From NCBI GenBank assembly GCA_003525075.1, contig DQFO01000021.1, positions 48,255-112,254 on the forward strand: a stretch of DNA of 64,000 nucleotides, written 5' to 3'. The DNA is from Clostridiales bacterium (GTDB lineage: Bacteria; Bacillota; Clostridia; TANB77; CAG-508). Below, piece after piece: positions 44,481-63,785 of this stretch. The translations under genes were made by a program, and so were the position numbers. A model generated the notes under the pieces. That model had not been told where the DNA came from. It searched no databases and saw only the letters and a program-made list of their open reading frames with translations. The number at the start of each line of letters is the position of its first letter. The stretch's first letter is position 1.

Positions 44481-44830
44481 GGGGATGTAATGGTTTCGAC
44501 ATTATATCTGAAGCATGAATAGCGAGTAGTGGATTCTCGTTTGCCACTATAAAAACGGGAAATTAAATATAAACGCTGATAATACAGAATTAGCATACGC
44601 TGCTTAGTTGCAACGTCGCCTCTAAAAGTATCCCCACATATTTTTAGTTGGTGTCATTTAGTGGGAAACAAAGCTATTTTTTCTATGGAAATAGTGGGTA
44701 TTTAATAGATATATTTTTTAATCGCTTGTTTGTTTGTGGTTATTAGATGAATATTAAAAATAAACTGCACTCGGAGAAGTTTGTGTGAATCTTATAGTGG
44801 ACAGGGGTTCGACTCCCCTCATCTCCACCA
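44481..44830 (+). ncRNA. ssrA: tmRNA (transfer-messenger RNA)
   Basis: The 5' end GGGGATGTAATGGTTTCGACA and the 3' end GGACAGGGGTTCGACTCCCCTCATCTCCACCA form a tRNA-Ala-like acceptor/T-arm with encoded CCA. The internal tag ORF ends ...GCATACGCTGCTTAG (..AYAA*). Confidence 0.85.
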
Positions 44831-58736: not shown

Positions 58737-58942
58737 TTTACTCTCTCCTCTTTTTTATTACTAACATCAATAATTATAATGTATTTTTAGCTAAAAATCA
58801 AGTTTTCTATGTAAAGAATTTTGATTTCTTACCACATTTGTGACATAATATTTTTTTGCTAATCTAATATTGTTGTTTTTTGTTTAATTATGGAAAACTT
58901 TGTTATATAATAACAGAAAATAAAAGATGAAAGGAAAATAAA

Positions 58943-59064
58943 ATGGGTAAATCAAAAGAAAATCAAGAAGTAGTTGTTCTTATCTAAGAAATAGCAAAAT
59001 TTCAATTAACATAAGTGATGCTAAGGCTAAAGGTTATACAGCTTGCTCTAGATGTAATCCATAA
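58943..59064 (+). pseudogene. frameshifted small ORF encoding the C-terminal half of an Ada-type zinc-binding domain
   Basis: Frame 2 reads ..SSCSYLRNSKISINISDAKAKGYTACSRCNP*. This resembles the Ada N-terminal domain end ..PSCRAR..FYANASEALAAGFRPCKRCQP. The only ATG (MGKSKENQEVVVLI*) is in the adjacent frame. Confidence 0.3.
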
Positions 59065-59070
59065 TAATAT

Positions 59071-59109
59071 AAAAAAAACAGCTAAATTCATAAAATAGCT
59101 GTTTTTTTA
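59071..59109. terminator. bidirectional Rho-independent terminator
   Basis: An A-run, an 8-bp stem aacagcta/tagctgtt with an 11-nt loop, then a T-run. Confidence 0.7.
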
Positions 59110-59268
59110 TGGAGCGGTTAAGCAACAGCTTACGAACCATAACGCTCTCTTTCTAAAAATATTATATATGAATTCTTATTAAATTTCAATGGGAGTATGG
59201 AGAATTTTGTTATTTTATAGTATAATATATTCAAAATTAAACTTGATTCTATATAAGGAGGAAGTATA

Positions 59269-59736
59269 ATGGATATAAGATATGCGGTAAGAGTATTTGC
59301 TTTTAAAGATAACAAGGTTGCCTGTATTAAATATAAGAATATTAACAAAGATTATTTTGATATACCTGGTGGAAAGATTGAAGATGGTGAAACTGAAATA
59401 CAGACTTGTATAAGAGAATTTAAAGAAGAAACCGGAATGGATATTAATGATTTAAAATGTATTGGAAATGTTGAAATTATATATCCAGGTAAAAATAAAA
59501 AATTTGTTATGAAAACATATATCGCAAATAAAGTGAATGGTAACCCATTGGATTTAGATGATAACTATGCTTATTGGTTACCTATAAATGAATTAACTAA
59601 GAATGAAAAAAGATTTGCAATAACTCATTTGTTAGATGATGATTTAATTAATTATTTTGAATCAGAGAAAATCAATATTTTATTTACTTGCGATGATAAT
59701 CATAATATTACTAATATGGAAATAAAGGAGGCATAA
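59269..59736 (+). CDS. NUDIX hydrolase
   Basis: Nudix box GGKIEDGETEIQTCIREFKEETG. AAGGAGG RBS. Confidence 0.8.
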   Translation: MDIRYAVRVFAFKDNKVACIKYKNINKDYFDIPGGKIEDGETEIQTCIREFKEETGMDINDLKCIGNVEIIYPGKNKKFVMKTYIANKVNGNPLDLDDNYAYWLPINELTKNEKRFAITHLLDDDLINYFESEKINILFTCDDNHNITNMEIKEA

Positions 59737-59737
59737 A

Positions 59738-60154
59738 ATGAATGCAAATTTGTGGACACAATTACTTATAGCAATAGTTCCTGCACTTATTACTGGTGTT
59801 GGAAGTTTAATAATTGCTATTAAGAAATGTAAGAATGAAATTAATACACTTGAAACTAATAATAAACACGAAATAGAAAAATTAATGAAACAACATAAAA
59901 TAGATATTGAAGCATTAAATGAAAAACATAGACTTGATATAGAAACTAAAGAAAAAGAACATCAATTAAAAATTGAAGAGATAAAAGTTCAAAATGAACA
60001 AGAAATATTAAAAAGAGAGAAAGAATTATCTAATTCTGCAATGTATTCAATGATGGGAGATGCAACTAAGGATTTATTTGCAGGAATATTTAACTCACCT
60101 GAATTTAAAGAAGAAATGAGTAAAAAAATTAAAGAAGGATTTAATAAGAAATAA
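59738..60154 (+). CDS. membrane-anchored coiled-coil protein, unknown function
   Basis: N-terminal TM followed by a Lys/Glu-rich heptad-like region. Start overlaps the NUDIX stop. Confidence 0.4.
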   Translation: MNANLWTQLLIAIVPALITGVGSLIIAIKKCKNEINTLETNNKHEIEKLMKQHKIDIEALNEKHRLDIETKEKEHQLKIEEIKVQNEQEILKREKELSNSAMYSMMGDATKDLFAGIFNSPEFKEEMSKKIKEGFNKK

Positions 60155-60172
60155 TTATTATGGAGATACAAA

Positions 60173-60817
60173 ATGGGATTTAATGAAAAGGAAAATTCCT
60201 TAGAATATTGGGATAATATACATAGTAAATATGAACGAAATGAAATAAAATTAGACGACTGGTTGGATAAGTTTGAAACTATAATAGATAGTTGCTCAAC
60301 TCCTATTTTGGATTTAGGGTGCGGAAGTGGTAATGATACTTTGTATTTAATTAACAAAAATAAACAAGTTATATCTTGTGATCAATCTAGCAATGCAATT
60401 AATAATATTAAAAAAAACTTTCCAGAAGTGTATGATACTAAGTGTTTTAATATGCTTGATGGAATGCCATTTGATAATAATTCGTTTGAACTAATAATTG
60501 CTGATTTATGTTTGCATTATTTTAAAGAAAAAGATACATTTGAATTATTAAATGAAATAAGACGCATTCTTACTGTTGGAGGACGCTTAATTTTTCAAGT
60601 TAATTCAGTAAATGATGTAAATCACGGTGCTGGTCAAGGTAATGAAATAGAACATCATTTATATGAAACATCGGATAAAAGATTAAAAAGATTTTTTGAT
60701 GAAAAAGACATTAAGTTTTTCTTTAAAGATTTTGATATCGAATATCTAAATGAAGAAATAATGACAAGATATAAATTAGAAAAAAGATTATATAGAGTTT
60801 GTGTTAGAAAAAAGTAA
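60173..60817 (+). CDS. class I SAM-dependent methyltransferase
   Basis: Motif I ILDLGCGSGNDTLYL. Post-I acidic residue (SCDQS). Motif II/III region LIIADLCLHY, RILTVGGRLIFQ. Confidence 0.75.
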   Translation: MGFNEKENSLEYWDNIHSKYERNEIKLDDWLDKFETIIDSCSTPILDLGCGSGNDTLYLINKNKQVISCDQSSNAINNIKKNFPEVYDTKCFNMLDGMPFDNNSFELIIADLCLHYFKEKDTFELLNEIRRILTVGGRLIFQVNSVNDVNHGAGQGNEIEHHLYETSDKRLKRFFDEKDIKFFFKDFDIEYLNEEIMTRYKLEKRLYRVCVRKK

Positions 60818-60900
60818 AGGGTATGGGAATTCCCATAGTAGAATTTATGCGGGAGTATAAATTCAGTGCTGGCTAGACACGACTTTTACTCCCATACTCT
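60818..60900. repeat. structured inverted-repeat element: a 16-bp perfect palindrome centred on GAATTC plus nested 7-10-bp inverted repeats
   Basis: tatgggaattcccata (60822-60837). gggagta (60851-57) pairs with tactccc (60887-93). gggtatggga pairs with tcccatactc. Confidence 0.6.
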
Positions 60901-60910
60901 AAAAAATATA

Positions 60911-60954
60911 AAAAGAGGATTAAATTATTTTGATAATTTTTTCCTCTTTTTTAA
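60911..60954. terminator. bidirectional terminator between the methyltransferase gene (+) and the 118-aa gene (-)
   Basis: 7-bp stem aagagga/tcctctt with a long loop, flanked by A and T runs. Confidence 0.4.
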
Positions 60955-60961
60955 AGATTAT

Positions 60962-61318
60962 TTACACAAAAACATATTCATTTAAGACAATTTCTTCAGC
61001 CATATTCTTGTAATTATTCATTAACTTTGTCCATTCTAATGGATTTAATTCTTTATTTTTTTCAGGCAATCTTTCATCATTTTTAATATAATCATCCATT
61101 AGTATTTTGTATAAACTTTCGCAAGAATCACTGACTAAAAGAAGATGATGAGTAAGTTTATTTGTCATTAAAAGTGTTTCATAAAGTGCTTGTTTATTTT
61201 GAGCAATAAAGTGTAATCTTGATATTCCATATTTGCCAATTCTTCCACATTCTTCATCCTTTTCTAAATATAAATTTGGTATTAAATAATCTCCTTGCCT
61301 TGTATATTTTATTTCCAT
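60962..61318 (-). CDS. hypothetical protein, co-oriented with and immediately downstream of the serine recombinase gene (candidate accessory/directionality factor)
   Basis: 25-bp gap to the recombinase stop. No recognisable family. Confidence 0.35.
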   Translation of the reverse strand: MEIKYTRQGDYLIPNLYLEKDEECGRIGKYGISRLHFIAQNKQALYETLLMTNKLTHHLLLVSDSCESLYKILMDDYIKNDERLPEKNKELNPLEWTKLMNNYKNMAEEIVLNEYVFV

Positions 61319-61343
61319 ATTTTTATCATTCCTTTCTTAATTT

Positions 61344-63125
61344 TTAAACATTTATTAGTTCAGTTTTTGGTATTAGAATTAAAGTATCAACTATATTATT
61401 GCCTTCAATATAGGGACAATTTATTATTCCATCTACATAGAAATGTTCTTTCATCAAGTCAAAATAATTGTTTAATTCTTCTTCGGTATATTGATTGTTT
61501 TCCATTTTTACTAATGACATAATTGTATAATCATTTTCTAATTCTAATAATTTTTCTTTATTAATTTGTTCTTTATAGGTTATGCCAATGTTGTTATCAG
61601 CCAGTAATTCATTTAAATAATCAATATAATCTTGTGTACTTTTTGAGATAAATTCTTCTGTAAATTTGATGCTTTTTATCTCAATATTGAATTTATTATC
61701 TCTTGTTATTTCTATTGAAGATATTAATCTATTAATTAATTCTTTTTGTGCTTTTCTATTTAAACTATCAAACAAATAAGTAAAACTTAAATTGTTTTTA
61801 AAGATAAAATCTCCATTATCTTCTTCATAATCTAACTTTTTAAGAAGTTCTACTGTGTATTCTTTAAAGTCATTATCTGGATCAAGAGTAGTTTTCTTTT
61901 TAGTTAGTTTATCAATTTCTTTTTTAATAACATCATTTTTATGATTAATTGTTTCTACATCTAAAGTAGAACTTAAATATAAATCTACTAATCTTTTTTC
62001 TTGAACTTTTAACTTTTCAATGGCTTTTTCTATTTCTTTTACTTCTTTACTTTTAGTAGAACTACAAGTAATTATTTCATTAGAATTATCATACATAAAT
62101 CTAGTTAATTCATTTAAAATTCTTTTTAATTTATCTTCAATTTTATCTGAATTATAATGATAACCATAGCCTTTGCAACTAGTATTTTTACATCTTAAAT
62201 GGTAGTAAACTTTGGTATTACCTTTATAAGTTTTAAATGATTCACTAGCAGCAAGTATCTCATTACATATTGGACATTTTACTAATCCTGCAAATAAATG
62301 AATATGCTCTCCGTAGTTTGGATGTTTATTCTTTTCTAGATTTGCTCTTGTCGTGTTCCAAGTATTTATATCAATGATTGACTCACAATAATTTTCAACT
62401 CTTAAAACATCTTGTGGCTTTCTTTTATACTTTCCATACTCAAATACACCAATATAAATAGAATTAGTTAGTATCTTATAAACTCTATCTGATGCCCATT
62501 TTCCTCGTTTTAAATAAGCGTTATTATCTTTCATAATGGTTGCAATATTTCTAGTTAATTGTCCTTTTTTACATAGTTCAAATATCTCTTTTACAACTTG
62601 TGCTTCAATAGGTTCTACTTCTAAATGACCAGTATCTTTATTTCTAATATAGCCATAAGGTGCCTTACTAGGGTGTATTTTTTCTAAAGCCATTTCTTCC
62701 ATAGCACGTTTAGTTCTCGCTCCAATTTCTTTTCTTTCACGTTGACCAAATACTAAATTCATACCAAATATCATTTCGCCATTAGCAGTAGATACATCGT
62801 AAGGTTCAAGTATTAATTCAATCTTAACATCGTGTTCTTCACAGTAATTAAGTAGCCAAAATCCATCATAGTTGTTTCTAGTTAATCTATCTACCTTTAT
62901 TGCAACTAACTTATCAATTTTCTTTGATTTAATATCTTTAAGTAGTCTTTGCATTTCAGGTCTCATTAAATCCTTTCCAGAATGCCCTGCGTCATTATAA
63001 ATATCTACTATATCATAATCATTCTTTTCACAATATTCTTTAATCATTCTAAGTTGTGAATCAATAGAATAACCATTATCTCTTTGGTCATCAGTAGACA
63101 CTCTTACATAAACTCCACATCTCAT
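61344..63125 (-). CDS. large serine recombinase (resolvase/invertase catalytic domain, recombinase domain and zinc-ribbon/coiled-coil C-terminus)
   Basis: The N-terminus CGVYVRVSTDDQRDNGYSIDSQ carries the catalytic Ser of the resolvase fold. VDRLTRN motif. Cys cluster CPICNE...CKNTSC. Length 593 aa. Confidence 0.85.
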   Translation of the reverse strand: MRCGVYVRVSTDDQRDNGYSIDSQLRMIKEYCEKNDYDIVDIYNDAGHSGKDLMRPEMQRLLKDIKSKKIDKLVAIKVDRLTRNNYDGFWLLNYCEEHDVKIELILEPYDVSTANGEMIFGMNLVFGQRERKEIGARTKRAMEEMALEKIHPSKAPYGYIRNKDTGHLEVEPIEAQVVKEIFELCKKGQLTRNIATIMKDNNAYLKRGKWASDRVYKILTNSIYIGVFEYGKYKRKPQDVLRVENYCESIIDINTWNTTRANLEKNKHPNYGEHIHLFAGLVKCPICNEILAASESFKTYKGNTKVYYHLRCKNTSCKGYGYHYNSDKIEDKLKRILNELTRFMYDNSNEIITCSSTKSKEVKEIEKAIEKLKVQEKRLVDLYLSSTLDVETINHKNDVIKKEIDKLTKKKTTLDPDNDFKEYTVELLKKLDYEEDNGDFIFKNNLSFTYLFDSLNRKAQKELINRLISSIEITRDNKFNIEIKSIKFTEEFISKSTQDYIDYLNELLADNNIGITYKEQINKEKLLELENDYTIMSLVKMENNQYTEEELNNYFDLMKEHFYVDGIINCPYIEGNNIVDTLILIPKTELINV

Positions 63126-63165
63126 AATTTTCCTCCTTTCCTTAAATTTTGAGAAATACTAAATA

Positions 63166-63313
63166 CCTCTCATATGTTTCCTCACTCAAACGCCAAAAGT
63201 AAACCCTAAATTTGAAAAAAATTTAATTTTTTTTAATATTTCTCATTAGTTTCTTCAAATAAAGTGGGTTTTACGAAGTCAAATTTAATATATTTCTCTA
63301 TATGTTTCCTCAC
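63166..63313. repeat. pair of ~14-18-bp direct repeats upstream of the recombinase gene
   Basis: atatgtttcctcac appears at 63172-63185 and again at 63300-63313. The flanking tctc extends the match. Confidence 0.7.
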
Positions 63314-63339
63314 AAATAAGCAAAATGTATAGTCTAAAA

Positions 63340-63618
63340 TTAAAATTTTTTCAAAAATTGTGCAATTTCTTTAAAATTATACTTTTTATTATGTTCTTTA
63401 ATATAAAAAGGCTTATTTGATATTTCATTAACTTTGTATTCAAGTATTGTAAGAGTAGTAGGATATGTAATCTGGTATTCAGTAGGTATTACTACTTGTA
63501 AGTTGGTGTGTAAAATAGTTTTAATTTGTCCTAATTTAACCTTATATTTAAATTCTTTTAAAATGTTGGTTAAATCTTTATTAGCTTTTAAATTTGCAAT
63601 TACTTTAAATTCAAGCAT
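63340..63618 (-). CDS. hypothetical small protein
   Basis: ORF only, no homology recognised. Confidence 0.3.
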   Translation of the reverse strand: MLEFKVIANLKANKDLTNILKEFKYKVKLGQIKTILHTNLQVVIPTEYQITYPTTLTILEYKVNEISNKPFYIKEHNKKYNFKEIAQFLKKF

Positions 63619-63709
63619 GAAAAAAGTCCTCCTTTCTAGAAAGAGAACTTTTAAAGTTTTATATAAAATAAAAACTCACGAACTTTTAAGTCCGTAAGTT
63701 GATTTCAAA

Positions 63710-63785
63710 TGGAGCTTACAACGGGAATCGAACCCGTGACCTCAGCCTTACCAAGGCTGCACTCTACCAACTGAGCTATGAAAGC
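63710..63785 (-). tRNA. tRNA-Thr (anticodon GGU), CCA encoded
   Basis: The reverse-complement folds as a cloverleaf. Acceptor GCTTTCA/TGTAAGC. Anticodon stem CAGCC/GGCTG with loop TTGGTAA. T-arm GGGTTCGATTCCC. Confidence 0.8.

Follow-up and report, generated by a model that had tools for sequence, protein, structure and literature searches.

A 4.6-kb element with its own large serine recombinase, inserted at the CCA end of a tRNA-Thr gene in a Clostridiales bacterium

We analyzed a 64,000-nucleotide stretch of a Clostridiales bacterium contig (DQFO01000021.1), hereafter the window, in which a first-pass annotation had placed a probable small integrated element with a gene for a large serine recombinase (LSR) at the 3' end of a tRNA-Thr gene. 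The existence of filled and empty alleles of this site in the same species bears out that proposal: the element is a strain-variable mobile cassette of 4.6 kb, inserted by an LSR at the CCA end of tRNA-Thr. We regard it as highly probable that positions 59116-63715 constitute an LSR-driven, site-specific integrative element that works as follows. The LSR would have recombined an attP site of about 48 bp with an attB site consisting of the tRNA-Thr T-loop and acceptor end, and the crossover would most likely be at the CT of GCTCCA (tRNA C72-U73). The element would bring CCA plus T past the crossover point, leading to exact restoration of the tRNA gene, and would also bring a replacement terminator just behind the restored tRNA. 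All coordinates are positions in the window and (+) and (-) denote its strands; the genes, repeats and tRNA listed in the first-pass annotation were all found where it had placed them.

The limits of the insertion were established by comparison of filled and empty alleles, using contigs recovered by exact-sequence look-up of the LysS protein and then of the LSR. Six same-species contigs, in which LysS is identical to that of the window, carry an empty site where the tRNA-Thr CCA end is followed directly by the terminator (...GTTGTAAGCTCCAT|AAAAAAACAGCTATTTTATGAATTTAGCTG...). In 14 contigs (4 recovered via LysS and 10 via the LSR) an insert is present at one and the same nucleotide, and the four filled LysS contigs all have the gene order ORF92-LSR-TnpV-methyltransferase-coiled-coil-NUDIX (ORF, open reading frame). 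Between the tRNA end and the terminator there are 27 bp in the empty loci versus 4627 bp in most filled loci, and the insert is therefore 4600 bp long. The empty alleles are exact to the nucleotide and free of any scar. The right junction lies at the tRNA-Thr/lysS site in 14 out of 14 filled loci of the species, and also in an IMG/VR contig (L101). The metagenomes ERZ28757446 and ERZ28749580 are examples that contain the filled allele. The insert is bounded by a 7-bp direct repeat, ATGGAGC, at 59109-59115 and 63709-63715. Since this repeat consists of the six 3'-terminal nucleotides of the tRNA and one further nucleotide, the tRNA is rebuilt exactly. The resemblance to the tRNA 3' end that had been seen near 59107-59140, and considered a possible att-site remnant, thus proves to be the true attR, and the 7-bp exact copy that it contains (59109-59115) sets the far boundary left undefined at first. 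Alignment with related genomes, which had been suggested as a check, gave six empty versus 14 filled contigs and exact junctions; the search for a direct repeat of the tRNA 3' end, also suggested, found one, of only 7 bp and of the serine type, not the long duplication of the tyrosine type. The sequence 58943-59108 is a conserved flank that lies outside the element and is also found at empty sites.

59070..59107 (-): native tRNA-Thr terminator, host DNA, which adjoins the CCA end in empty sites and was moved 4.6 kb by the insertion
59109..59115 (no strand): attR core ATGGAGC (minus-strand GCTCCAT), which repeats the tRNA 3' end, from filled versus empty alleles
59116..63715 (-): inserted element, exactly 4600 bp with one core copy included
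63709..63715 (no strand): attL core, same 7 bp, covering the last 6 nt of tRNA-Thr (G71 to A76) and 1 nt more
63710..63785 (-): tRNA-Thr(GGU), target gene, intact (tRNA call; Rfam tRNA 68.5 bits)

Relatives of the element were collected in a family scan with one genome per species, which led to the identification of at least 310 relatives; the best 80, 74-99% identical, were examined. Together with the alleles of the species itself they allowed us to propose the following att sites.

59116..59145 (-): putative binding arm for the recombinase at the right end (P arm), minus-strand sequence GCGTTATGGTTCGTAAGCTGTTGCTTAACC, conserved across 27 right ends
63673..63700 (-): left arm (P'), overlapping an intrinsic terminator (12-bp stem plus T-run)
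Predicted attP joint: ...GCTGTTGCTTAACCGCTCCATTTGAAATCAACTTACGG...
Empty attB: ...GTTGTAAGCTCCATAAAAAAACAGC...

The P arm and the left arm together form an imperfect palindrome. In the reconstructed attP, GTTCGTAAGCTGTTGCTTAACCG-CT-CCATTTGAAATCAACTTACGGAC, this palindrome is 48 bp long and imperfect, its arms are inverted repeats about CT, and its centre is the CT of GCTCCA that corresponds to tRNA C72-U73. Three attR variants were found within the species (CCGCTCCAT, CTGCTCCAT and CTTCTCCAT), and all of them retain CTCCAT. In L021, a contig with a 99.3%-identical copy in another context, attL reads ...CCCCT|CCATTT and attR reads ...ACCGCT|GCCAAT, the only letters in common being CT. Taken together, the centre of the attP palindrome, the attR variants and the L021 junctions indicate that the crossover dinucleotide is probably CT (AG on the plus strand), within GCTCCA. 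The features common to the target tRNAs are the T-loop GTTCGATTC, about 20 nt before CT, and CUCCA. The sequence 3' of the tRNA differs between targets, so that the right half of attB is unconserved, and recognition seems therefore to operate mainly via the tRNA half-site. In the element arm GGTTCG is found 24 nt before CT; as a candidate outer motif it lies 24 nt from the centre in attP versus 20 nt for the T-loop motif in attB, a difference of about 4 bp. In the model proposed for LI integrase the zinc-ribbon domain is positioned differently on attP and attB, and the GGTTCG offset fits this model.

The left-end terminator (63700-63673, a 12-bp hairpin plus T-run) stands directly behind CCA and takes over from the displaced native terminator of the tRNA. 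A hairpin followed by a T-run is present in 59 out of 59 distinct left ends of the family, and in 52 of these the sense strand gives the more stable fold (-10.8 kcal/mol in the tRNA sense versus -6.8 kcal/mol in the antisense over the 59 left ends). A sub-threshold match to the Rfam antisense RNA HPnc0260 (63606-63748 (+), 49.9 bits versus a gathering score of 59) overlaps the left end of the element and the strand antisense to the tRNA 3' end; it probably arises artefactually from tRNA-like sequence.

Read along the minus strand from the tRNA, the element contains the terminator, ORF92, the LSR gene, tnpV and a bidirectional terminator, and transcription of the cargo genes is convergent with this order. 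ORF92, LSR and TnpV, all in one direction, would form the backbone module.

60962..61318 (-): tnpV, 118 aa (PF14198 E=3.8e-28; phrog_24764)
61344..63125 (-): LSR, 593 aa, intact (PF00239 E=9.5e-33, residues 5-146; PF07508 E=8.5e-16)
63172..63345 (-): two intergenic repeat units, ...TTTGCnTTTnAGTGAGGAAACATAT(G)AGA on the minus strand, between ORF92 and LSR
63340..63618 (-): ORF92, 92 aa, conserved companion of the recombinase

In the LSR the YVRVSTDDQ nucleophile motif aligns with YTRVSTTNQ in the catalytic domain of TP901-1 integrase. The Zn_ribbon_recom model reaches 17.8 bits, below its cutoff of 25.3, and the protein displays four cysteines (CPIC...CKNTSC) and a heptad-rich stretch. Searches against PHROGs returned the integrase family phrog_95 (E=3e-100), the best NCBIfam match is CcrB (E=1.3e-44, 152.8 bits versus a family cutoff of 900), and the similarity to the N-terminal domain of TnpX (2mhc, E=8.4e-8) is confined to residues 4-90. 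No relative with more than 36% identity was found in 72,556 plasmid records or in 50,697 phage records. One 4.8-kb record with an LSR, MT838820 ('Bacteriophage sp.'), was considered as a packaged relative and rejected, having 43% GC and neither TnpV nor the structured motif described below. Pfam did not find DUF4368 in the LSR; this domain marks many multi-targeting LSRs (PMC10083194).

The start of tnpV lies 25 bp past the LSR stop. The domain searches recommended for the 118-aa and 92-aa proteins identified the former as TnpV (PF14198) and gave no match for the latter. The 118-aa protein had been put forward as a candidate directionality factor. PMC3158075 and PMC5704250 indicate that TnpV of Tn4451 was formerly compared to Xis, and according to the same papers TnpX alone was reported to be enough for both excision and insertion of Tn4451 (Lyras et al. 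2004 as cited in PMC5704250, PMC3158075); since TnpX is sufficient in this homologous system, a directionality-factor role for TnpV is unsupported. No solved structure of a TnpV was found. As for ORF92, Pfam gave no domain match, and its AlphaFold2 (AF2) model is confident (pLDDT, the predicted local distance difference test, 91.5) and has no structural neighbour. It is represented by 2510 clusters, and a homologue is present 5' of the LSR in nearly all relatives whose contig is long enough. ORF92 belongs to the element, of which it is the most constant companion gene.

The two exact copies of the 14-mer ATATGTTTCCTCAC (63172-63185 and 63300-63313), reported earlier as candidate binding sites for the recombinase or a regulator, are present and turn out to be the core of a unit found throughout the family. 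Each forms the first 14 nt of a longer, imperfect repeat of 46 nt (76% identity, spacing 128), and the unit ...TTTGCnTTTnAGTGAGGAAACATATGAGA occurs in 1 to 4 copies between ORF92 and LSR among the relatives, the window having two. One copy overlaps a promoter-like sequence, TTGTGA-17-TATATT, at 63315-63287. We take these units to be LSR promoter/operator units or protein-binding iterons.

Several copies of the element in the species are decaying, with a split or short LSR (540 aa, 561 aa), a short TnpV (89 aa) or a split NUDIX gene (99 + 44 aa); these changes lie at 5617-7398 in L006, 5709-7689 in L010 and 13390-13847 in L015/L019.

The part of the element opposite the recombination module is occupied by cargo. 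A three-gene plus-strand cassette coding for a NUDIX hydrolase, a membrane coiled-coil protein and a class I methyltransferase had been recognized in the first-pass annotation, and domain searches support the NUDIX and methyltransferase assignments.

59269..59736 (+): cargo gene 1, NUDIX hydrolase, 155 aa (PF00293 E=3e-14; PADLOC candidate PDC-S07 E=1e-15)
59738..60154 (+): cargo gene 2, coiled-coil protein with an N-terminal membrane anchor, 138 aa (phrog_2542 E=1.4e-14)
60173..60817 (+): cargo gene 3, class I S-adenosylmethionine (SAM)-dependent methyltransferase, 214 aa (Methyltransf_11 E=1.3e-16)
60910..60953 (no strand): bidirectional terminator hairpin, AAAGAGGA...TCCTCTTT with A and T runs on its sides, separating the cargo operon from tnpV; read by eye

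The cargo is modular. Homology with elements that carry other cargo (L070, L084, L028) extends from 63715 down to about 60813 and resumes at 59239-59109, that is over the last 120-130 bp; the cargo therefore occupies about 59240-60812. Conversely, the NUDIX/coiled-coil/methyltransferase trio is found, with about 100% protein identity, on backbones with LSRs 99, 96, 91 and 75% identical to that of the window. In the 24 relatives with defined bounds the cargo is almost always antisense to the LSR. The cargo slot would face the recombination module and lie between the right-end promoter region on one side and the structured motif plus bidirectional terminator on the other; the hairpin of this terminator was not listed by the terminator scan. 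The 138-aa coiled-coil protein has no Pfam match, phrog_2542 is a family of unknown function, and distant homologues (26-31% identical) are encoded 3-4.7 kb from the start of Streptococcus prophage records. No specific NCBIfam equivalog matched the methyltransferase at cutoff. The cargo sampled in relatives includes three DUF1016/YhcG nucleases, one Abi_C protein, further NUDIX proteins, a metallophosphoesterase, a metallo-beta-lactamase-fold protein, an NT5C nucleotidase, an EEP-family protein, two APH-type kinases, an AAA_15 ATPase, a DUF6602/NERD protein and an ABC exporter. From the company of cargo kept by these relatives we infer a role of the window cargo in defence or in nucleotide metabolism or signalling.

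The best 80 relatives come from uncultured gut metagenome-assembled genomes (MAGs) labelled Clostridium sp. CAG:571, CAG:567 and CAG:354, Bacilli, Mollicutes/Tenericutes and Erysipelotrichaceae. The architecture of the relatives is constant, in the order tRNA-ORF92-LSR-TnpV; the elements are about 4-8 kb long and in most of them TnpV is located 3' of the LSR. They would share a common backbone and differ in cargo, which would often consist of nucleases, nucleotide hydrolases and abortive-infection-like genes. Out of 84 left junctions, 50 adjoin a tRNA gene: tRNA-Gly(TCC) in 32, tRNA-Thr(CGT) in 9, tRNA-Gly(GCC) in 7 and tRNA-Thr(GGT) in 2. The other 34 are at another sequence ending in CTCCA, and most of these belong to recurrent types resembling the right ends of other elements, so that they look like junctions within tandem arrays. 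A second target is also implied in the species of the window: at about 9340-9420 of L015 the left junction is with tRNA-Gly(GCC) and an LtaS/LytR flank and the right junction is at the lysS flank, which reflects either a rearrangement or an assembly path through two copies.

Among metagenome contigs we found 13 generic attP-like joints, all of them within longer contigs. Some array joints lead into units that have a left end, motif, cargo and right end and are devoid of ORF92, LSR and TnpV. These recombinase-less units are probably non-autonomous passengers that rely on the recombinase of a neighbour, comparable to the pseudo-SCC units of staphylococcal cassette chromosome (SCC) arrays. Overall, the related elements would target the CCA ends of tRNA-Gly and tRNA-Thr genes and stack there in tandem arrays that include such units. 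The joints before recombinase-less units (right end + GCTCCA + left end) are:

L117 66-95: array joint
L119 6402-6431: array joint
L120 5668-5697: array joint
L122 8188-8406: array joint
L123 1170-1387: array joint
L126 8176-8393: array joint

Near some family members, and in some cases beside tRNA-Gly, we also observed a second LSR-TnpV pair in which the LSR is 25-30% and the TnpV 53-57% identical (L022 1983-4152, L044 13097-15268, L068 814-2985, L074 14422-16590 and L075 14613-17037). It seems that these tRNA ends are contested by several distinct recombinase families.

At the border between cargo and backbone lies a structured noncoding motif with two hairpins.

60808..60886 (+): structured noncoding motif at the cargo/backbone border (alignment of 60 distinct sequences, covariation)
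60823-60827/60832-60836 (+): hairpin 1, ATGGG-AATT-CCCAT
60841-60850/60855-60864 (+): hairpin 2, GAATTTATGC-GGGA-GTATAAATTC, with loop GGGA
60865-60878 (+): conserved tail AGTGCTGGCTAGAC

The motif is about 65-79 nt long, is in the sense of the cargo and occurs once per element in constant orientation. In the 60 distinct sequences 96.5% of the cells pair versus 33-58% in slid controls, and six base pairs show changes on both sides. G-U pairs occur at two positions (in 34 and 9 sequences), where the other strand would give mismatches. The loop GGGA(GT) and the tail core AGTGCTGGCTAG are invariant. A covariance model built on the motif gave a single match in the window (96 bits) and one per unit in arrays, and found none in the empty-site loci searched. 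No Rfam 15 family matches 60808-60886 at E<=1. The motif is common to two or more element families with LSRs that are only about 26% identical (further copies at L022 4176-4254, L044 15292-15370, L067 10187-10265 and L068 3009-3086), and it is retained once per unit in the units that have lost ORF92, LSR and TnpV.

The motif could be either an RNA element in the 3' untranslated region (UTR) of the cargo operon or a single-stranded DNA site (oriT mimic or single-strand origin). If it were a transfer origin (oriT) or single-strand origin and not part of the cargo transcript, the family would be mobilizable in trans by conjugative elements. Its retention once per unit even where the backbone genes are lost, its presence in families with such divergent LSRs and the fact that the elements have no relaxase of their own are in favour of this possibility. 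So is its layout, a hairpin followed by the invariant single-stranded tail AGTGCTGGCTAG, which recalls the arrangement of hairpin and nick region typical of MOBQ-type oriTs. Against it, no relaxase partner was identified, the G-U (G-T) pairs and the GNRA-like GGGA loop suit an RNA at least equally well, and the motif is located exactly where a 3' UTR of the cargo operon would be expected, ahead of the terminator. We therefore consider a transfer or single-strand origin possible but somewhat unlikely.

Both ends of the element carry sequences that suggest a wiring of its expression.

59161..59189 (-): predicted outward promoter (Pout), TTGAAA-17-TATAAT, directed through attR (11/12 consensus match)
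59189..59197 (+): ATGGGAGTA box, adjoining two divergent -35 hexamers with a 1-nt overlap with that of Pout, conserved as CCATACTCCCATTGAAA
59198..59226 (+): candidate cargo promoter TGGAGA-17-TATAAT, with the -10 conserved as ATTATA on the opposite strand
60887..60895 (+): TACTCCCAT, in the backbone between motif and terminator, conserved in the closest subfamily only
63626..63648 (-): hairpin hiding the ORF92 Shine-Dalgarno (SD) sequence, GTTCTCTTTCTAGAAAGGAGGAC (P(paired)=0.97, folding)

In the 27 right ends compared, TATATAAT does not vary, TTGAAA varies hardly or not at all, and most of the CCATACTCCCATTGAAA box is conserved. The ATGGGAGTA box and TACTCCCAT had been described as a 9-bp inverted repeat flanking the cargo operon; both arms are indeed present, although they do not bound the cargo cassette and lie instead in the conserved backbone on either side of the slot. 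The 9-mer ATGGGAGTA has five copies in the window versus 0.34 expected. Three of the five are in unrelated coding sequence, so that the count alone is no evidence, and the 9-mer was rejected as a significant repeat.

No consensus promoter was detected by the promoter scan 5' of ORF92 in the integrated state. The GGAG of the ORF92 SD is paired in 46 of 51 family sequences, with a free energy (dG) of -9.95 in the sense versus -3.65 in the antisense. We also considered a dyad operator in the region of the ORF92 ribosome-binding site, but an RNA hairpin is favoured by the family sequences, in which the central CTAG is unconserved and the loops differ in length. The 5' end of the predicted Pout transcript, UAGAAAGAGAGC, is complementary to the anti-SD strand. 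When the joined (attP) transcript was folded, UAGAAAGAGAGC paired with the anti-SD (P=0.97) and the ORF92 ribosome-binding site was freed (paired with P=0.02). Four right-end variants keep this pairing via A-U to G-U changes. The 5' end of the Pout transcript could thus open the hairpin over the ORF92 ribosome-binding site, and the ORF92/LSR operon would then be translated preferentially when a right end joins a left end, in a circle or an array joint. As modelled here, expression of ORF92 and LSR may accordingly be favoured from the excised circle or from array joints. An antiterminator formed by pairing of the P-arm GTTCGTAAG with CTTACGGAC in the joint transcript was also considered and discarded after folding (P(terminator)=1.0, P(antiterminator)=0.0).

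The mobility of the element is supported at the level of the population by the exact filled and empty alleles in one species, and the copy in the window would be active. Several observations nevertheless weigh against this account. The exact attP joint had 0 matches in metagenome contigs and no excised circle was seen; the 13 generic joints are all within longer contigs, which is consistent with arrays. The LSR is shortened in L006 and L010 and the NUDIX gene is split in L015 and L019; given this decay within the species, one cannot count on a particular copy being mobile. We detected no relaxase, recognisable oriT, or gene for replication or packaging, and Pfam, NCBIfam and PHROGs revealed no relaxase domain in any of the six proteins, which leaves intercellular transfer unexplained. 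With regard to the proposed expression circuit, folding shows that the intervening left-end terminator is still formed in the joint transcript (P=1.0), so that the circuit would require read-through or action in trans. Because the sequences of the Pout 5' end and the anti-SD are near-invariant, covariation cannot test their complementarity. Finally, the function of the window cargo is known at the domain level only.

The failure to detect a circular form in metagenome contigs and the frameshifted LSR or NUDIX genes of several species copies would also suit a fixed, immobile remnant, that is a domesticated island whose polymorphism results from one ancient insertion and lineage sorting. We consider this unlikely given that LSR, ORF92, TnpV, arms and promoters are intact in the window copy, that the empty sites are nucleotide-exact and scarless, that a 99.3%-identical copy is found in another genomic context (L021), that the L015 element is joined to tRNA-Gly(GCC) and that near-identical cargo is carried by diverged backbones in genomes of other species. 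A phage origin, as a prophage remnant or a helper-packaged satellite, could be suspected from the PHROG matches of the three cargo proteins and TnpV, from the presence of 14 relatives on IMG/VR contigs labelled viral and from the distant Streptococcus prophage homologues of the coiled-coil protein. However, within the 4.6 kb neither Pfam nor PHROGs revealed a gene for a capsid, terminase or repressor or for replication or packaging, and the LSR has no relative above the 36% level in the phage records. Moreover, the IMG/VR elements are mostly at or near contig ends, beside tRNAs where the flank is informative, and this resembles host flank. A phage origin is thus very unlikely. The position at a tRNA 3' end, together with a far boundary made of a direct repeat of the tRNA end, is what a classical tRNA island driven by a tyrosine integrase would show, with a long duplicated segment of the tRNA 3' end. 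Such an island is extremely improbable here: Pfam found no tyrosine recombinase domain and the sole recombinase is a serine enzyme, the repeat is 7 bp versus the usual 20 bp or so and more, and the att arms are inverted repeats around a central dinucleotide in the fashion of serine integrases. The LSR-driven, site-specific integrative element hence remains our preferred interpretation.

We compared this element with known systems. It resembles Tn4451/Tn4453 of C. perfringens and C. difficile in being a small clostridial element with an LSR gene followed by tnpV, variable cargo and a 2-bp crossover (PMC5704250, PMC3158075). Unlike these transposons, which have a GA core and low specificity, its insertion is strictly confined to tRNA CCA ends and its core is CT; its LSR is only distantly related to TnpX, and it has neither the TnpZ Mob/Pre relaxase nor the RSA oriT. 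Lyras & Rood are said to have found in 2000 that expression of the Tn4451 recombinase is raised in the circle by a promoter assembled at the joint. The joint-dependent expression of ORF92 and LSR that we propose would be similar in spirit. No counterpart in Tn4451 has been described for ORF92, for the complete outward promoter, for the ribosome-binding-site hairpin or for the structured motif. With respect to integrative mobilizable elements (IMEs) in the sense of PMC5704250, the element has its own integration/excision module (LSR plus att sites) and no relaxase was found in it, the hairpin-plus-tail motif at 60808-60886 being a candidate cis site.

In gene order the element resembles Tn4451 and its lifestyle is most similar to that of SCC and the Dehalococcoides ssrA islands, and it is a member of none of these groups. 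SCC elements such as SCCmec, mobilized by CcrAB or CcrC, are LSR cassettes inserted at the very 3' end of an essential gene, which remains active, with variable cargo and no transfer genes, and they form tandem composite arrays that include recombinase-less units. These cassettes are also discussed in PMC3146451. The element differs from SCC by its single recombinase, by a CcrB score far under the cutoff, by its target, a tRNA gene and not rlmH, by the much smaller size of its family members (about 4-8 kb) and by its hosts, which are uncultured gut Clostridia-like bacteria. The Dehalococcoides ssrA islands (DsiB) are serine-recombinase islands at the 3' part of the tmRNA gene, and like the element they have an integration module beside attL and tandem accretion including units devoid of the module (PMC3146451). 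They differ from it by a 20-bp repeat, insertion in the T-loop, a six-gene module with two serine recombinases, a larger size and another host phylum (PMC3146451), compared with a 7-bp repeat, insertion at C72-U73 and the companions ORF92 and TnpV in the element. The tycheposons of Prochlorococcus are likewise cargo carriers at a handful of tRNA genes, which occasionally build up side by side and seed variable islands, but they have tyrosine recombinases in 474 out of 501 cases, partial-tRNA repeats and replication modules, and bear no relation to the element in sequence or mechanism (10.1101/2020.12.28.424599). Finally, the domain architecture of the LSR and the imperfect-palindrome att site around a dinucleotide are like those of the phage serine integrases TP901-1, A118/LI, phiC31 and Bxb1 (PMC3783163). 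Unlike these integrases, the LSR is non-phage, the right half of attB is unconserved between its targets and no directionality factor was identified.

A limited search of the open-access literature returned no description of LSR-TnpV mini-elements at tRNA-Gly or tRNA-Thr CCA ends. LSR surveys analyzed protein-coding targets, and one large survey (PMC10083194) is without any mention of tRNA. According to a review, serine-recombinase mobilizable elements usually disrupt genes (PMC5704250). It is conceivable, and we put it forward tentatively as a whole, that the observations taken jointly describe an undescribed, widespread cassette platform of uncultured gut Firmicutes. In this platform an LSR clade would read the T-loop and CUCCA of tRNA-Gly and tRNA-Thr, arrays would include recombinase-less units, and a standard expression slot would often hold defence-type genes. 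The motif would represent a new structured RNA or single-stranded DNA class common to several unrelated LSR-TnpV families, possibly an oriT mimic, and an RNA circuit would sense circularisation through the Pout 5' end unlocking the ORF92 ribosome-binding site. Such cassettes of 4-8 kb would offer uncultured small-genome gut Firmicutes a compact and abundant route for exchanging accessory genes that leaves the tRNA undamaged. An LSR clade that restores the tRNA end and seemingly needs mainly one conserved half-site broadens the known target logic of LSRs, and its integrases, with a well-defined and widely conserved landing site, are possible tools. The outward promoter, the ribosome-binding-site hairpin and the covarying motif are concrete regulatory parts, to which can be added ORF92 as a confidently folded protein without structural relative.

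Some minor observations concern the surroundings of the element. In the flank, 58944-59064 (+) contains a small frameshifted ORF, MGKSKENQEVVVLI* and then ...ISDAKAKGYTACSRCNP* in another frame, which is also present at empty sites. The 34 nt at 58889-58922, 5' of this ORF, are 76% identical to the cargo-promoter region 59196-59229, which could be due to chance or be the trace of an older element. A tmRNA gene (tag peptide ADNTELAYAA) is located at 44481-44830 (+), and no element was seen beside it. In three contigs of the same species (L007 1-5300, L012 1-3950 and L016 1-3950) a strain-variable block upstream of the tRNA-Thr locus encodes a NUDIX protein, a metallophosphoesterase, a second NUDIX protein, a DUF1016/YhcG nuclease, and an OLD-family AAA_15+TOPRIM protein with a UvrD-like helicase (a Gabija-like pair). 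In other strains the position of this block is held by the spoIIIA-recG genes, and its repertoire is similar to the cargo of the element family.

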